From NCBI GenBank assembly GCA_963813335.1, contig CAWEYL010000003.1:480001-544000 (forward strand): a stretch of 64,000 bases of DNA, written 5' to 3'. Each line of letters starts with the position of its first letter. The first letter of the stretch is position 1. This document shows positions 4,145-53,039 of this stretch, in pieces. Under the pieces are notes generated by a model that saw only the letters and a list, made by a program, of their open reading frames with translations, searched no databases and was not told the DNA's origin. This DNA comes from an uncultured Chloroflexia bacterium (lineage in GTDB: Bacteria > Chloroflexota > Limnocylindria > Limnocylindrales > CSP1-4). Both the position numbers and the translations under genes were made by a program.

Positions 4145-5524
4145 TCGCGGCCGACCACGGGGCGGACCTCGCGGCGACCCTGCGGACGGCGATCCCGCCC
4201 GAGGTCCACGACCTGCTCGCGACCCTGTGGGCGGGCGGCCACGCCGCGTACGTCGTCGGCGGGTCGCTGCGCGACGCGCTCCTCGGCCGGCCGGCCGAGG
4301 ACTGGGATCTCGCCTCGGACGCCCTGCCCGAGCGCGTCCTCGAGCTCGTGCCCGGCGCCGTCTACGAGAACCGGTTCGGCACGGTGGCGATCCGGCGCGG
4401 CGACGACATCCTCGAGGTCACGACCTTCCGCTCCGACCACGACTACGCCGACTTCCGGCGGCCGCACCGCGTCGAGTTCGGCGACACCATCGAGGTGGAC
4501 CTCGCCCGCCGCGACCTGACCTGCAACGCGATGGCGTGGGGGGCGGTGGCGGCGGCCGCCGGTTCGCCCGGGCTGATGGACCCGTACGACGGCGCCGCCG
4601 ACACGCGGGCGCACCTCCTGCGCGCGGTCGGCGAACCGCAGAAGCGGTTCGAGGAGGACGCGCTCCGCATGGTCCGGACCGTGCGACTGGCGGCGACGCT
4701 CGGCTTCGATATCGAAGCGGCGACGCTCGCCGGCATCCAGGCGAAGGCCGAGCTGGTCCAGCACCTGTCGGGCGAGCGGATCGCGACCGAGCTCGACAAG
4801 CTGCTCGCCGCCGAGCGGCCGTCGATCGGGCTGCGGCTGCTCGCGGACACCGGCTTGCTGGCCGGAATCGACGAGGCGCTGGCCGCCCAGCGCGGGATCC
4901 CCCAGAACAAGGTCGAGGGCGAGGACCTGTGGGACCACACGCTGCGCTCGGTCGATGCGGCACCGGCCGGCCGGCCGGTGGTCAGGCTGGCGGCGCTCGT
5001 CCATGACATCGGCAAGCCGTCGACCTTCGCCGACGGCCACTTCATCCGCCACGACGCGGTCGGGGCGGACCTCGCCGGCGAGTTCCTCGACCGGCTGCGC
5101 TCGCCGCGGGCCGTCCGCGAGCGGGTCGTCCACCTCGTCGCCAACCACATGTTCAGCTACGAGCCGAACTGGTCGTCCTCGGCGGTGCGGCGGTTCATCG
5201 CCAAGATCGGCCCGGACTCGATCGAGGACCTGTTCCTGCTCCGTGAGGCGGACAACGTCGGGTCCGGGCTGCCGGCCGACGCCGGACGGCTGGAGGAGCT
5301 GCGGGCCCGGGTCGCACGAGGCGCTCCGCGAGGGCGTCGTCCTCGGCCGCGGCGACCTGGTCGTCGACGGCGACGACCTGATGGCGGAGCTGGAGATCGG
5401 GCCCGGGCCGCACCTCGGCCGGATCCTCGACGCGCTGCTCGAGCGGGTGGTCGAGGACCCGGCCCTCAACGACCGTCCGAGCCTGCTGCTGCTCGCGCGC
5501 TCGATGCTGGCGGACGAGCCGTGA
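4141..5524 (+). CDS. cca: CCA tRNA nucleotidyltransferase with HD domain (frameshift ~5315; probable CTG start)
   Basis: YVVGGSLRD, DWDLAS, DLARRDLTCNAMA, EDALRM, LSGERI, HDIGKP; C-terminal GPHLGRIL in a second frame. Confidence 0.88.
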
Positions 5525-48328: not shown

Positions 48329-49319
48329 ATGATGCGGGGTAGCGTGAAGCTTCGAGCGATCCTGGGACTCTCGGTCGCGATGGTCGTCGGCTGCTCGGGG
48401 ATCGGCGACGAGCGCTCCGGGTCGGCGAACGCTCCCGCGTCGGCGACGAGCGCTCCCGCGGTCGGCCTCGCCCGTCGCAGCATCGCGCGTCGCGGATGTC
48501 GTCGTCGGCGGCGCTCGACCCGTGACCATCCACGTCCCGGCTGGGTACGACGCCAACCGCCCGGCGCCGCTCCTGATCGTCCTCCACGGCTACAGCTCGT
48601 CGGGCAAGCAGCACGACGCGTACTTCCATCTCGGGGAGGCCGCGATGCAGCGCGGCTTCCTCTACGCCTACCCGGACGGCACCGTCGACAGCTCCGGGAA
48701 CCACTTCTGGAACGCCACCGACGCGTGCTGCGACTTCGATCCGCGCGGGGTCGACGACGTCGCCTACCTCGCCGGCGTCATCGCCGAGGCGCGGGCGTCA
48801 CTCGCGGTCGATCCCAGGCGCATCTACCTCATCGGGCATTCGAACGGCGCGTTCATGAGCTACGCGATGGCCTGCGCGCAGGCCGACCAGGTCGCCGCGA
48901 TCGTCAGCCTGGCCGGCGCCACGTTCGTGGACCCGGCGGACTGCGCCCCGGCGGTCCCTGTCGCGGTGCTCCAGATCCATGGCACGGCCGACGACACGAT
49001 CGCCTTCAAGGGCGGACAGATCGTTCTGGGTGGGGGCCGGTCGATGGCGCCCTACCCCGGCGCCGAGACGTCGGTCGCCACCTGGGCGTCGTACGACGGC
49101 TGCGCGGGCTCTTCGGTCGTCGACGAGCGCGTCGACGTCGACGCGGACCTTTCCGATCACGGCTCGCCGGCCGAGGCCTCGGTGACGCGCTGGACCGGCT
49201 GCAAGCCTGGCGGGGCGGTCGAGCTCTGGACGGTGCCGAACGGCGGTCACAGCCCGAACATCTCCGCGTCGTTCCCGGCGGCCGTCCTGGACTTCTTCGA
49301 GGCCCACCCGAAGCCGTAG
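48329..49319 (+). CDS. Secreted PHB-depolymerase-family (LpqC-like) esterase (frameshift ~48470)
   Basis: LIVLHG, YPDG, WNATDACC, DDVAYL, GHSNG, IHGTAD, GGH. Confidence 0.85.
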
Positions 49320-49335: not shown

Positions 49336-50136
49336 TCAGTCAGCCGCGCGGATGAGGCGGAGCGGGCGGAGCGTCAGCCCGTAGATGACGATCGCGCCGA
49401 TGCCGGCGAGCAGGCCGAAGACGATGGCGCCAGCCGGCACCCACGGACCTTCGACGATCGCATGCCACACATCGAAGGCGACCGCGGTCACCAGCGCGCC
49501 GAGGATGCCGACGGCCAGCCGGTGGCGACGCGGGCTCAGGCCCGATCGATCGAGGAACGCCGTGGTCCGGGCGACGACGGGGCGAAGCGGGCGCAGCGGC
49601 GGGATCCGGCCAACGAGCTCGTCGCCGAGGCCGAGGGCGTCGTCGAGGAGGTCGGGTTCCGGGGCTGACGGGGTGGCCGCACCGGTCGCGGTCCCGGCCC
49701 GCACGGCGCGGACGAGCAGGACCGTGGCCGCGGCGACCGCCACGGAGTTGATGAGCCACAGCGCGGCCACGAACCACGGCAGCTCCGTGCCCGCATCCGC
49801 CGGCGGCGCCGCGTACGCGAGCGCGTCCGAGACGAGCGTCACGCCCATGATCGCGAGCGCGATGCCGATGCCGAGCCGGATGCGCCGGGCCACGGCCGGG
49901 TCGAGGACGGTCTCGCGATGACGAAGGCTGCGGACCCAGGTCGCGCCGGCGACCAGGGCGATCGCCATGACGGCGTAGCTGACCACGGCGTCGTAGGGGT
50001 CCAGCGTGAACGGCAGCGTCTCGCGCAGGTCGTGGACCTGGGTCGTCAGGAAGCAGAGGAGGCCGAACAGCACGACCGCACAGGCCGCGGTGTTGGCGGC
50101 GAGTCGCGTGGCTCGGGTCTCGTCCCGATCGCTCAT
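49336..50136 (-). CDS. Hypothetical membrane protein
   Basis: About 6 TM segments, PFTLDPYDAVVS motif. Confidence 0.75.
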   Translation of the reverse strand: MSDRDETRATRLAANTAACAVVLFGLLCFLTTQVHDLRETLPFTLDPYDAVVSYAVMAIALVAGATWVRSLRHRETVLDPAVARRIRLGIGIALAIMGVTLVSDALAYAAPPADAGTELPWFVAALWLINSVAVAAATVLLVRAVRAGTATGAATPSAPEPDLLDDALGLGDELVGRIPPLRPLRPVVARTTAFLDRSGLSPRRHRLAVGILGALVTAVAFDVWHAIVEGPWVPAGAIVFGLLAGIGAIVIYGLTLRPLRLIRAAD

Positions 50137-50159
50137 GGCCGAACGATAGCCCTCGGGAC

Positions 50160-50344
50160 GTCGAAGCGCCCCGCCGCGTTCGACGGGGCGCTTCGACCTG
50201 CAGTACGCCGCTCGGGGAAACGGCGTCCGCTCAGGGAGAGGAGGTGGTGGGTGCATGAGCCCCGGTGGGAGGACACCGGGGCTCATGCGAGAGCGCGTCC
50301 GCGCGCCGGGCAGCCACGACCGACGGGCGGGGTGGGAGACAGGG
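50160..50344 (-). ncRNA. Candidate sRNA/structured 3'UTR with C-rich anti-SD loops
   Basis: 15-bp stem with UCCUCC loop (50253-50288), CCUCCUCUCCC linker, CCCC-loop hairpin (50205-50226), terminal 14-bp stem (50160-50197). Confidence 0.5.
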
Positions 50345-50461
50345 TCAGCGGCGGCGGTCCCGCCGGATGGGTTGGGGGGCGGGCGTTTCGATCCCGAAGA
50401 GCGAGCCGACCATCGCCGCGATCCGGGCGATGCTGCGCTGGAGGCGGATCGAGATGGGCAT
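50345..50461 (-). CDS. Small Arg-rich protein (38 aa)
   Basis: MPISIRLQRSIARIAAMVGSLFGIETPAPQPIRRDRRR; GAGG 9 nt upstream. Confidence 0.55.
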   Translation of the reverse strand: MPISIRLQRSIARIAAMVGSLFGIETPAPQPIRRDRRR

Positions 50462-50535
50462 CGATGAGACCTCTGGTGGATGGCCCGTCTCGCCGAAAAT
50501 GCATTCCGACGAGGCGGACCGCCAGCATGGCCATC

Positions 50536-50558
50536 AGGTACTACGCGGTCTAGTACCT
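50536..50558. promoter_or_regulatory. Palindromic operator candidate
   Basis: AGGTACTA-N7-TAGTACCT. Confidence 0.55.
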
Positions 50559-50619
50559 TCGGTGCACACGTTTCCCCTGCCGACGTCAGCGGACCCCACC
50601 GGACCGCACCAGGGCGAGG

Positions 50620-51499
50620 TCAGGAAGCGTTGCTGACCGACACCGACGCGAGGTACCGGCGCCGCCATGTCTCGGTCGCCTCGACGTTGTTGAACGTGTA
50701 CAGGTGCAGGTCCGCGACGCGCGCCGCCGGATCCGCGATCGACCGGCGCAAGGCCCTCCAGCAGCCCGTCCGGCCGGTAGAACCCGCCCGAGCGGAGGAG
50801 ACGCGCCACGAACCGGGCGTTCTTGGTCAGGAACCGGTGGGTGTCCGCGACGCCGATCCGCGCCGTGATCGCCAGCAGCTTGTGCGGCTCGGCGACGCCC
50901 GGCAGCCCGATATGCACCGGGAGCGTCAGCCCCTCGGCGCGCCGGGCGGCGATCCAGGTCCCGATGGCGATGGGATCGAAGCAGAGCTGCGTCGTCATGT
51001 AGCTGGCGTACGTCGCCTTGGCCGCGAGGGCCTCGGCCAGCGGCCCGTCCGGGATGAAGGCGTGGCCCTGCGGGTAGCACGGGATCCCGATCTCGGCGAG
51101 CGGATGCCCGATGTCGGCCATCTCGCGCAGCAGCGCGAGGCCGTCGACGAAGTCGCCCGGCTCCTTGGCATCGCCGCCGACGACGAACGCGCGATCGACG
51201 CCGGCGCCCTCGAGCCACGCGATGAGGTCGGCGAGGTGCGCCCGGTCGCGGACCATCCGCGCGGACAGGTGCGGGACGGCCTTGAAGCCGCGCGCCTGGA
51301 GCGCCTCGCACAGCGCGATCGTCGCCTCGATGCCCTTGGCCGGCGACGCGGTGACCGAGACGGTGGCCCCGGCGGGCAGGTGGTCCGCCTGCTCGAGCGC
51401 GTTCTTGAGCGGCACCAGCTCGAGCGTCGGCGAGGCGAGGACCCCGGCGACCGCCCGGCGCTGGGCGGCCGTCAGCCGGGAGTGGCGGCGGAAGAGCAC
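50620..51499 (-). CDS. metF: Methylenetetrahydrofolate reductase-family protein (frameshift ~50735)
   Basis: VPHLSAR, FVVGGD, CYPQGH, TTQLCFD, LHLYTFN. Confidence 0.8.
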
Positions 51500-51502
51500 G
51501 CC

Positions 51503-53039
51503 CTAGACGTCCGAGTCGGGCTGCGCCGCCTTGCGCTTGACGATGAACTCGAGGAGCGCCTCGTCGGTCGCGTCGTCGATGGGCGGCGCCTCGTACTCGG
51601 CCAGCATCCGCTTCCAGATCGCGTTCGCCCGCTGCGCGGCGTCGAGCGAGCCGTCCTCCTGCCACTGCTCGAAGCTGTTGTTGTCGGCGATCTCCGAGCG
51701 GTAGAAGGCGTGCTCGAAGTTGGCCAGGGTGTGGGCGTTGCCGAGGTAGTGCTGCCCCGGCTCGTTGGTGCGGATCGCGTCGATCGCCTGGCCGTTCTCG
51801 GAGAGGTCGACGCCGTTGACGAAGACCGCGGCCATCCCGCACTGGTCGGCGTCGAGGATGAACTTCTCGTAGCCGACGGTGAGCCCGCCCTCGAGCCAGC
51901 CGGCCGCGTGGAGGACGAAGTTGACGCCGCCGAGGATCGTGGCGTTGAACGTGGCCGCCGACTCGTAGGCGGCCTGGGCGTCGGCGATCTTCGAGGCGCA
52001 CAGGTTGCCGCCGGAGCGGAACGGGACGCCGAGCCGGCGGGCCAGCGAGGCCATGACGTACAGGACCAGCGACGGCTCCGGCGTGCCGAAGGTCGGCGCG
52101 CCCGACTGCATCGAGATGGAGCTGGCGAACGAGCCGAGCACGACCGGCGCGCCCGGCCGGACCAGCTGGACGAAGGCCATCCCGCCGAGCGCCTCGGCGA
52201 GCGTCTGGGTCGCGGCGCCGGCGACCGTCACCGGCGACATCGCGCCGGCGAGGATGAACGGCGTCAGGAGCGTGGCCTGGTTGGCCTCGGCGTAGGCCTG
52301 CGCCGCGCCGAGCATCACGCCGTCCCAGACGAGCGGCGAGTTGGCGTTGATGAGGCTCAGGACCACGGGATGGTCCTCGAGGTACGGCGCGCCGAACAGG
52401 ATCCGCGCCATCTCGACGGTGTCGCGCGCCCGTTCCGGGGCGGTGACCGAGCCCATGAACGGCTTGTCGCTGTAGCGCATGTGGGCGTAGACCATGTCGA
52501 GGTGCCGCTTGTTGACCGGCACGTCGACCGGCTCGCAGACCGTGCCGCCCGAGTGGTGGAGGTGCGGCGACAGGTAGGTGAGCTTCACGAGGTTGCGGAA
52601 GTCCTCGATCGTGCCGTAGCGCCGGCCGCCGTCGAGGTCGCGCACGAACGGCGAGCCGTAGTTGGGCGCGAAGACCGTGTGCATCCCGCCGATCTCGACG
52701 TTCCGCTCCGGGTTGCGCGCGTACTGGGTGAACTGGCGCGGCGCGGTCGCCTGGACGATCGAGCGCGCGAGCCCGCGCGGGAAGCGCACGCGCTCGCCGG
52801 TCGACGTCGGCGCCGGCCTCGCGGAAGAGGCGCAACGCGTCGGCGTTGCCGCGGAACTCGAGGCCGACCTCCTGGAGCATCGTGTCCGCGTTGTACTCGA
52901 TCAGCGACAGGCCCTCGTCGTCGAGGACCTCGAACGGAGTCAGCGTCCGGGTCAGGAACGGCACGTGCTCGGCATGCGCCAGGAGCCGGGCGGCCTGCCG
53001 GGCGGCCCGGCCGCCGCTGCGCCGACGGGGTTCGTCCAT
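51503..53039 (-). CDS. Non-pyrrolysine MttB-family methyltransferase, MtgB-like (frameshift ~52800)
   Basis: GGTVCEPVD, INANSPL, PFILAGAMSP, SGAPTFGTPE, RSGGNLCASK, HAAGWLEGG. Confidence 0.9.

Follow-up and report, generated by a model that had tools for sequence, protein, structure and literature searches.

What does a small, arginine-rich open reading frame (ORF) followed by a row of stable hairpins represent when it stands beside an operon of one-carbon (C1) metabolism? The question is raised by the minus strand around positions 50160 to 50461 of a 64,000-nt stretch of contig CAWEYL010000003.1 (hereafter the window), which belongs to the metagenome-assembled genome (MAG) of an uncultured Chloroflexota bacterium. 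A preliminary description of this DNA had listed a 38-aa ORF with a ribosome-binding site (RBS), a UCUCCC motif, a perfect 15-bp stem with a UCCUCC loop, a single-stranded C/U-rich stretch, a hairpin with a CCCC loop and a strong terminal stem, and re-reading the sequence confirmed each of these elements and its coordinates (Table 1). The region is the remnant of a transcription unit whose product in most species of the genus is a large cell-surface protein. In the clade of the window, an internal in-frame deletion took the body of the gene and left the promoter region, the 5′ untranslated region (UTR), the RBS, the 38-aa ORF and an RNA in the 3′ UTR. The transcription unit ends in this conserved structured 3′ UTR, which comprises a variable hairpin 1, a linker, a hairpin 2 with a CCCCGAG loop and a terminator stem. 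As a whole, the region is best explained, with moderate confidence, as a gene-deletion remnant that retains a 3′UTR-borne base-pairing riboregulator.

Remains of a deleted surface-protein gene

The extent of the deletion can be seen by comparison with genome G088, in which the parent gene is intact and encodes 776 aa. A blastn search of the window against G088 gave collinear matches at the 3′ end of the MTHFR-like gene (82%), at a block with GAAGGTACTAGACC (E 2.7e-6) and at the RNA (75%), and 2.3 kb of G088 coding sequence corresponds to about 0.2 kb in the window. Residues 23-38 of the ORF match the last 16 residues of the G088 protein (BLASTP, E 4e-4). Furthermore, residues 5-21 match, without gaps and in register, residues 5-21 after the G088 start methionine, where the signal peptide begins, and this was the best local match in the whole G088 protein (p about 0.05 against 5000 shuffles). 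Given the tail match, the in-register N-terminal alignment and the collinear 5′ blocks described below, the ORF is the start plus about 23 codons of the surface-protein gene joined in frame to its last ~15 codons. The same deletion is present in all five sister genomes. Thus, a caution applies to layouts of this kind, as a tidy arrangement of a small Arg-rich ORF and hairpins may be the scar of a deleted gene and not a dual-function module.

The frame of the ORF has a coding-like G+C content at third codon positions (GC3, 0.86-0.88), and its product belongs to no family in Pfam or NCBIfam. The preliminary description had likened it to CcaF1, a DUF1127 protein; Pfam returned no DUF1127 match at E <= 0.01 or at E <= 10, and the ORF is a relic of a large gene. 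A tBLASTn-type search with the peptide in 100 genomes of the genus recovered one real match, in the sister genome G109 (E 5.5e-12), the remaining matches having E > 0.03 and lying inside long ORFs. Conservation was measured as pairwise identity in the five-genome, gene-less clade of the window. The C-terminal 87 nt of the ORF have an identity of 0.914 and no indels in the five genomes, with eight variable columns at third, five at first and one at second codon positions (chi-square p about 0.07), a suggestive pattern which hints that the ORF may still be in use. The N-terminal part is at the neutral level (0.757), with single-base indels. The apparent ORF lengths in the five genomes are 38, 38, 62, 64 and 65 aa, and these frame differences are uncertain because single-base indels of MAGs also occur in conserved genes, which counts against reading much into the frame. 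The mini-ORF would be a leader relic, probably still translated, and not an RNA-binding partner protein.

Several blocks found upstream of the intact gene are recognisable in the window, namely GGTGCGGTCCGGT, GTGTRCNCCGAARGTACTAGACCGCGT, CATGCT, ACGGSCC and the RBS with the start codon. In addition, the window shares GTACTAGACCGCGT with other genomes, where it lies in the 5′ region of the intact gene. Within the 5′ UTR, CATGCT and ACGGCCCG/ACGGGCCA align with G088, the RBS and start read GGAGGATCTATCGATG in G088 and AGAGGTCTCATCGATG in the window, and the GTACTAGACC block precedes the ATG by 80 nt and 86 nt, respectively. Among the five sister genomes, the block at 50559-50507 shows an identity of 0.958, compared with 0.75 in the intergenic DNA immediately upstream of it. 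A simple scan found no sigma-70 consensus promoter at the locus. The block GGTGCGGTCCGGT stands upstream of the intact surface-protein gene in all 7 group-B genomes and in 4-5 tandem copies in G097, and the decamer repeat is a putative regulator-binding site. Arrays of the GTGCGGTCCG type also occur elsewhere in the genome of the window, in further intergenic positions (C2:62987, C2:95733, C1:129841, C6:89629, C1:1205216-1205268 and, outside the window, C3:422398), one of them again adjoining GGTACTAG; these arrays may be the binding site of a single regulator.

The stop codon of a gene whose product ends in P(T/P)PPTD, a hydrophobic helix and a terminal TPVPAxxRRRxR lies 5-136 nt ahead of the RNA core in 22 of 30 loci. 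Sixteen of these frames are open to the edge of the locus, and the other six have the tail with an interrupted frame, which likely reflects assembly frameshifts. The G088 protein has a signal peptide, a VWA domain, two DUF11 repeats and DUF7507, and the Pfam search of the G088 and G108 proteins gave VWA, DUF11 and DUF7507. In G112, which has two copies of the RNA, both stand behind a gene with the same tail. The C-terminal PPTD, helix and Arg-tail signal is not named in Pfam or NCBIfam and is possibly a signal by which this group sorts proteins in a sortase- or exosortase-like manner. The last ~50 aa of protein P0002 (L125:7566-9896) carry PT(L/P)PPTD, a hydrophobic helix and an Arg-rich TPVPAxxRRRNRR, and this ending recurs on divergent surface proteins of the genus.

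A structured RNA family at the end of the transcription unit

RNAfold of 50350-50140 (211 nt) gave -119 kcal/mol; 200 dinucleotide shuffles came to -89.65 +/- 4.51 (z -6.51), and none of them folded as stably. A CCCU/GAGGG pairing enclosing hairpins 2 and 3 is also predicted. The preliminary description had named covariation in related genomes as a check, and this proved positive. Among 33 aligned members, 96.5% of the cells pair, against 36-49% with the partners slid, 12 of 25 pairs show changes on both sides, and the covariation score was reached by none of 500 shuffles. An alignment of 19 members made with MAFFT only gave 99.2% paired cells and 11 of 25 pairs changed on both sides. The double-sided changes fall in the hairpin-2 stem (91.9% paired; 3/9 pairs) and the hairpin-3 stem (99.0% paired; 9/16 pairs) of the 33 members. 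A conserved, structured, small RNA (sRNA)-like element with C-rich, anti-Shine-Dalgarno (anti-SD)-like single-stranded motifs, co-linear with a small ORF, is therefore present as described.

Table 1. Features of the transcription-unit remnant in the window (aa, amino acids; MFE, minimum free energy).
Feature	Position	Strand	Remarks
Tandem 10-nt repeats GTGCGGTCCG GTGGGGTCCG	50590..50609	minus	Upstream block of the retained promoter region
AT-richer palindrome GGTACTA-N7-TAGTACC with TAGACC	50537..50557	minus	Possible -10 element or operator
Retained 5′ UTR of the lost gene	50462..50536	minus	RBS AGAGG 50474-50470, 8 nt ahead of ATG; collinear with the G088 5′ UTR
38-aa mini-ORF MPISIRLQRSIARIAAMVGSLFGIETPAPQPIRRDRRR	50345..50461	minus	ATG 50461-50459, TGA 50347-50345; parent-gene start fused to last ~15 codons
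UCUCCC	50334..50339	minus	
Tentative spacer hairpin, stop codon to hairpin 1	50299..50330	minus	In MFE and centroid folds
Hairpin 1, perfect 15-bp stem, UCCUCC loop	50253..50288	minus	Double-sided changes in sister genomes
C/U-rich linker ACCCACCACCUCCUCUCCCUGA	50231..50252	minus	Unpaired in all folds; family consensus cCgCCUUyCCC
Hairpin 2, CCCC loop	50200..50230	minus	Loop region UUUCCCCGAG 50220-50211; most conserved part of the family
Hairpin 3, 17-bp terminal stem, terminator-like	50160..50197	minus	Paired and covarying across 33 members; U tract absent behind it

Loop conservation, which the preliminary description had expected, was found in part. The CCCCGAG loop of hairpin 2 is invariant across the family (33/33 members), and the C/U-richness of the linker is likewise retained in 33/33, but the hairpin-1 UCCUCC and CCUCCUCUCCC are confined to the small clade of the window. 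Hairpin 1 varies across the family in sequence, in loop and even in presence: other lineages hold a hairpin of unrelated sequence and loop at its position, and some have no space for it, with a gap of only 5 nt between the stop codon and the linker. Within the five sister genomes, three of its stem positions are changed on both sides (A-U/G-C, G-C/A-U and U-A/C-G) with the loop constant, and the alignment of the window's genome (G000) with G109 showed two compensatory changes in this hairpin. The spacer ahead of it is 0.793 identical within the clade, and group-B genomes have another hairpin there. Most other lineages have a U-rich tail behind hairpin 3 (CUCUUCAUG, GCUUUUCGU, UGUUUUGUGU), which is lacking in the clade of the window. 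A plus-strand reading, in which GGAGG and an ATG at 50255 open a 70-aa ORF, was rejected because its start is not conserved in group B and the U tails stand behind hairpin 3 on the minus strand.

The family appears to be confined to one genus. Full-length matches to a covariance model built from two sequences (R1; G000 and G109) came from 16 genomes of the genus; four of these matches were close and about a dozen distant, and all fold as the same three-hairpin shape. With a second model (R2), comprising the linker and hairpins 2 and 3, and a threshold of E <= 1e-4, the RNA was recovered from 48 of the 131 genomes searched in the genus; two forward-strand copies were present in seven of the 48. 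In 150 genomes from 49 genera of the family, R2 gave convincing matches only in this genus; those outside it, at 27-33 bits, align essentially via the terminator stem and were not counted as members. An exact 20-mer scan of 185,579 species genomes returned 52 loci, with true matches only in MAGs of this group, as R1 matched only loci titled Chloroflexia or Anaerolineaceae and the others were chance. In an Actinomycetota MAG (L123, 1501-1720), the hairpin-2 20-mer pattern recurs six times at an exact 40-nt spacing, as a tandem array that has nothing to do with this RNA. A search for DNA similarity in 40 relatives gave short matches only, including 26-nt matches in the ORF region.

No Rfam family reached its gathering score in the window. 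Hairpins 2 and 3 gave a weak match to the Streptomyces sRNA Scr6106 (RF02827; 29.9 bits against a gathering score of 52.5, E 0.22), in which ACGCCG..CCCGAG..CGGCGU and the terminator align; it was not seen in five other members, and the resemblance is probably chance. Sub-threshold matches to b55 and sbcD were not reproduced in five other family members either and were treated as chance. A literature search, supplements excluded, found no description of this RNA or of regulatory RNAs in this group of uncultured bacteria, which is abundant in soil and freshwater. The RNA is a previously uncatalogued structured family of a genus of uncultured soil Chloroflexota.

These data bear directly on the dual module of the preliminary description, in which an Arg-rich protein and 3′ UTR sRNAs of the CcaF1/CcsR or 6C kind would regulate the adjacent corrinoid/C1 operon. 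The layout is superficially alike, with a small Arg-rich ORF followed by hairpins with CU-rich motifs. As in the published outline of CcsR/CcaF1 in Rhodobacter sphaeroides, an sRNA with anti-SD-like CU-rich motifs lies in the 3′ UTR of a small ORF with C1 genes nearby (PMC8034643). The same outline gives CcsR RNAs two hairpins each, with loops carrying CCUCCUCCC (PMC8034643). Unlike that system, as far as it is set out there, the window has a single RNA without tandem homologous copies, its ORF is a gene remnant, CCUCCUCCC is lacking and the host is not alpha-proteobacterial. CCUCCUCCC stands in no loop of the 33 members, and UCCUCC is found in the five clade genomes only. The CcsR, cuckoo and ar14 models of Rfam gave no match, either in the window (E <= 10) or in five other members (E <= 5), and the 6C model matched neither the window nor those members. 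For the actinobacterial 6C sRNA (B11), C-rich hairpin loops are described as pairing with unpaired G-rich stretches or RBSs of several mRNAs (PMC6486639). The RNA studied here is similarly short, GC-rich and of a chaperone-independent sRNA type with C-rich loop pairing, but by comparison with the features reported in that source it has one invariantly C-rich loop (the CCCC of hairpin 2), is 3′UTR-borne in most genomes where 6C is a stand-alone gene, and belongs to a different phylum (PMC6486639). The host is a Chloroflexota bacterium, neither an alpha-proteobacterium nor an actinobacterium.

The proximity to C1 genes is real in itself. A corrinoid/MTHFR-like operon lies next door, and the unit stands behind an MTHFR-like gene in all checkable loci with enough flank, except in G138 (within 4.7 kb) and G097. 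Such a gene lies upstream in the five genomes of the window's clade and in G088, G098, G020, G078, G047, G144, G108 and G134, and more distantly in G071, G146 and G015. In G088 and G098, it is the surface-protein gene that lies directly behind the MttB and MTHFR-like genes. Since the RNA follows the surface-protein gene, which itself stands behind the MTHFR-like gene in many genomes, the adjacency represents inherited synteny. Against a specific link, the motif YTCGGGGR does not occur on the operon strand between 51499 and 58000, no operon start has a perfect loop complement, and in G097 the RNA lies away from any MTHFR-like gene. Together with the lack of DUF1127 and the origin of the ORF as a start-plus-tail fusion of a 776-aa-type gene, this makes the dual module highly improbable. 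Of the preliminary description, the idea that the 3′ UTR of a small ORF holds an anti-SD-like riboregulator can be kept in modified form, whereas membership in a CcaF1/CcsR-like module cannot.

Proposed base pairing and retention of the RNA after gene loss

The preferred reading, that of a base-pairing riboregulator, draws on complementarity between the RNA and the start of its own parent gene. The sequence CUCGGGG is the exact complement of the invariant CCCCGAG loop, and CUCGGGG or AUCGGGG stands directly behind the ATG in all four intact-gene subgroups examined (the G088 group, G108, G012 and G015). In group B, the start reads AUG-CAU-CGG-GGG with AUCGGAGGAUC as the SD sequence, and the linker CCUCCG is complementary to the SD CGGAGG. 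G108 has CUCGGGGAG as the SD sequence and ACUCGGGGGA behind the AUG, G012 has three boxes including AUG-UCG-UCU-CGG-GGA, and G015 has AUG-UCU-CGG-GGG. TCGGGG at +1 to +20 was found in none of 855 background start regions, and the duplex of the loop with its own start region ranked among the best 0.7%, 1.3%, 2.9% and 6.8% of these background starts.

It is proposed that the 3′ end of the surface-gene transcript would give rise to a riboregulator whose C-rich loop, with the linker where the gene is intact, may pair with G-rich SD-like boxes. One target would be the start of its own parent mRNA, at the (C/A)UCGGGG box of codons 2-4 and with CGGAGG as the SD sequence, in a feedback of the icaR type. 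At least one more target or partner may exist elsewhere. In Staphylococcus aureus, the icaR mRNA has a UCCCCUG motif in its 3′ UTR that is complementary to its own ribosome-binding region, and the model in the account drawn on here allows action in cis or in trans (PMC3868564). The intact genes of this genus show the same trait, a C-rich 3′ UTR motif (UUUCCCCGAG, CCUCCG) complementary to the G-rich start region of the same mRNA. They differ from icaR, so far as that account describes it, in that the complement lies mainly in codons 2-4 plus the SD sequence and the motif forms the loop of a covarying hairpin that immediately precedes the terminator (PMC3868564). The element also outlives its coding region here, there is no sequence homology, and the pairing here is predicted only, which likewise sets it apart from icaR in the reported details (PMC3868564). 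The result is a well-covarying candidate RNA with a defined seed, CCCCGAG, and a first candidate target, the CUCGGGG box in codons 2-4 of a VWA/DUF11 protein.

Several observations weigh against this reading. The start-region background comprises 855 starts of G000 only, obtained with a crude home-made gene finder. The four box-bearing subgroups are homologous and hence not independent, and the box overlaps conserved Arg-Gly codons. As the CCCCGAG loop never varies, intermolecular pairing is not open to a covariation test. The start of the mini-ORF in the window lacks the box, and its duplex with the loop is not special, 20% of the background being as good. Long-seed RNAduplex comparisons with the start region of the RNA's own gene were not discriminating (20-85% of the background as good), with the G088 seed in this comparison coming from the wrong CCCCGAGCG occurrence. 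A hunt for trans targets in G000 found none that was convincing, the 36 genome-wide CTCGGGGAA sites being mostly intragenic. The top-ranked trans start, at window position 48645, was rejected, as it probably lies within an alpha/beta-hydrolase gene and has no counterpart at the sister loci. Within the window, YTCGGGGR is not enriched (22 sites against 20.9 expected).

The strongest argument for a function beyond the parent gene comes from its repeated loss. Four different deletions in different lineages each retain the promoter region and the RNA. In the five-genome clade of the window, the gene is reduced to the 38-aa ORF; in G134, a mini-ORF of ~72 aa with two helices is retained; G097 has lost the ATG and kept hairpin 1, in two near-identical copies, one of them on an 11-kb contig; and in G071 the RNA core lies ~45 nt past the GTACTGG block. 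In the gene-less clade, identity is 0.974 for hairpin 2, 0.985 for hairpin 3 and 0.894 for hairpin 1 with its three compensatory pairs. The reference values are 0.81 and 0.70 for third codon positions of the flanking genes and 0.75 for the intergenic sequence after the MTHFR-like stop, and the linker, at 0.805, evolves at the neutral rate. Because four deletions spare the promoter and the RNA, and hairpins 2 and 3 are 97-98% identical where near-neutral sites are 70-81% identical, it is argued that the RNA would have a function independent of the parent gene. The RNA also lies between a stop codon and the terminator of the mRNA in 22 of 30 loci and is conserved beyond the neutral level, as is expected of a 3′UTR-derived sRNA. 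Envelope sRNAs derived from 3′ UTRs, for example CpxQ from cpxP, share the terminator of an envelope-protein mRNA and are more conserved than the neighbouring sequence. In contrast to CpxQ and cpxP, the parent ORF has here been lost repeatedly, with the promoter and the RNA remaining. The four deletions form a natural experiment in which the roles of a 3′ UTR and of its coding region can be told apart, and they indicate how a stand-alone sRNA gene can arise.

Contigs from RNA libraries of four soil metatranscriptome runs (X15-X18, two of which are maybe one data set) cover 50124-50788 piecewise at 90-99% identity, with spans of 50124-50320, 50257-50475, 50326-50479, 50451-50721 and 50637-50788. 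They carry the deleted form of the gene. As points on the other side, their strand and ends are not shown and DNA carry-over is possible, and two of the contigs continue from the MTHFR-like gene into the ORF. Coverage gaps of these contigs over the flanking genes were not interpretable.

The same evidence can be read as that of a purely cis-acting 3′ UTR element of the surface-protein mRNA, serving stability, icaR-like self-repression or termination without a role in trans. For the window's clade, this reading would imply a leftover that has not yet decayed, or one that now serves the downstream membrane-protein gene as a leader or insulator. It accords with the co-occurrence of RNA and gene in 22 of 30 loci, with the two copies in some genomes, with the loop and linker complements in the start region of the own gene (CCUCCG to the group-B CGGAGG) and with the neutral drift of the linker after gene loss. 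In the clade, hairpin 3 is without a U tract and the next gene starts 24 nt on, so that read-through, or a leader role for that gene, is possible, a point that also weakens the case for an independent sRNA; the predicted CCCU/GAGGG pairing fits here too. However, hairpins 2 and 3 have stayed 97-98% identical in five species-level genomes that lack both gene and box, promoter and RNA are both kept in three further, differently placed deletions, and the downstream gene varies among lineages and is about 1.27 kb off in G131. A purely cis-acting element is regarded as unlikely. On the riboregulator reading, a further target or partner is argued from the retention of hairpin 2 when the box is lost and the linker drifts; it would also explain how hairpins 2 and 3 remained under selection after the parent gene and its box were gone.

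A loop that is invariant in 33/33 members above a covarying stem is also what sequence-specific recognition by a protein would produce. Hairpin 2 would then be the site of an RNA-binding protein, an RNase or a termination or antitermination factor, and the C-rich linker a landing site for Rho or a KH-domain protein, an option that is distinctly unlikely. The unsuccessful hunt for a trans target and the position of the element immediately ahead of the terminator suit such a role. Conversely, no linked candidate protein gene was seen in the loci examined, the parent start region holds exact complements of the loop, and C-rich loops are known to act as seeds in 6C RNA and in S. aureus sRNAs, to the extent covered by the sources cited (PMC6486639, PMC3868564).

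A further-reaching version of the riboregulator reading is speculative, though not far-fetched. It envisages a genus-wide, chaperone-independent, 6C-like riboregulator of Limnocylindria-type Chloroflexota, born in the 3′ UTR of a surface-protein gene, driven by a regulated promoter (decamer repeats, palindrome), using the CCCCGAG loop to repress its parent and other G-box mRNAs, and repeatedly becoming a stand-alone sRNA gene upon deletion of the parent ORF. If so, stages in the birth of an sRNA gene from a 3′ UTR would be preserved side by side in sister species, and, in the window's clade, the sole reason for retaining the 38-codon stump would be that its translation enables transcription to proceed into the RNA.

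Host genome and neighbouring genes

The genome of the window (G000) is a 2.54-Mb MAG of seven contigs, 81% complete, and the window has a GC content of 71.8%. The genes upstream of the remnant on the same strand encode a B12-binding protein, DUF1638, a pterin-binding protein, RACo, an MttB-family methyltransferase and the MTHFR-like protein. The stop codon of the MTHFR-like gene is the TGA at 50622-50620, instead of 50534: the G000 gene has one additional C at 50741, which has no counterpart in the four sister genomes, and its last ~40 codons are frameshifted. Four single-base insertions lie within about 1 kb of the same gene in G131. The long-read MAGs of this set carry indel errors. The MttB-family gene (window 52760-52800, minus strand; L125 about 5230-5260) requires a one-base frame change after about residue 80, with the first ~81 aa in one frame and the other 428 aa in another, and GC3 is near 1.0 in both. 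The change reads GAC-C-GGC in G000 and CGA-C-TTC in G088, 4-5 codons further on, and could reflect assembly errors at nearby sites or a true recoding event.

Downstream, in the window's clade, a gene for a 266-aa membrane protein without a family match starts 24 nt past hairpin 3. Convergent to it is the alpha/beta-hydrolase gene (48522-49319, plus strand), which is not present at the sister loci; CUCGGGGAGG, a perfect complement of the hairpin-2 loop, stands ahead of the probably internal ATG at 48645. In locus L045 (G131), about 1.27 kb of extra DNA lies between the RNA and the membrane-protein homologue, which is not so in the other four clade genomes. In five further loci (L050, L052, L055, L155 and L098), the RNA is followed by a conserved promoter-like TTGACG-N17/18-TAGACT and then AATCCCGACGAAATCACTCGGATATCG, an arrangement that looks like a leader or small hairpin of the next gene.

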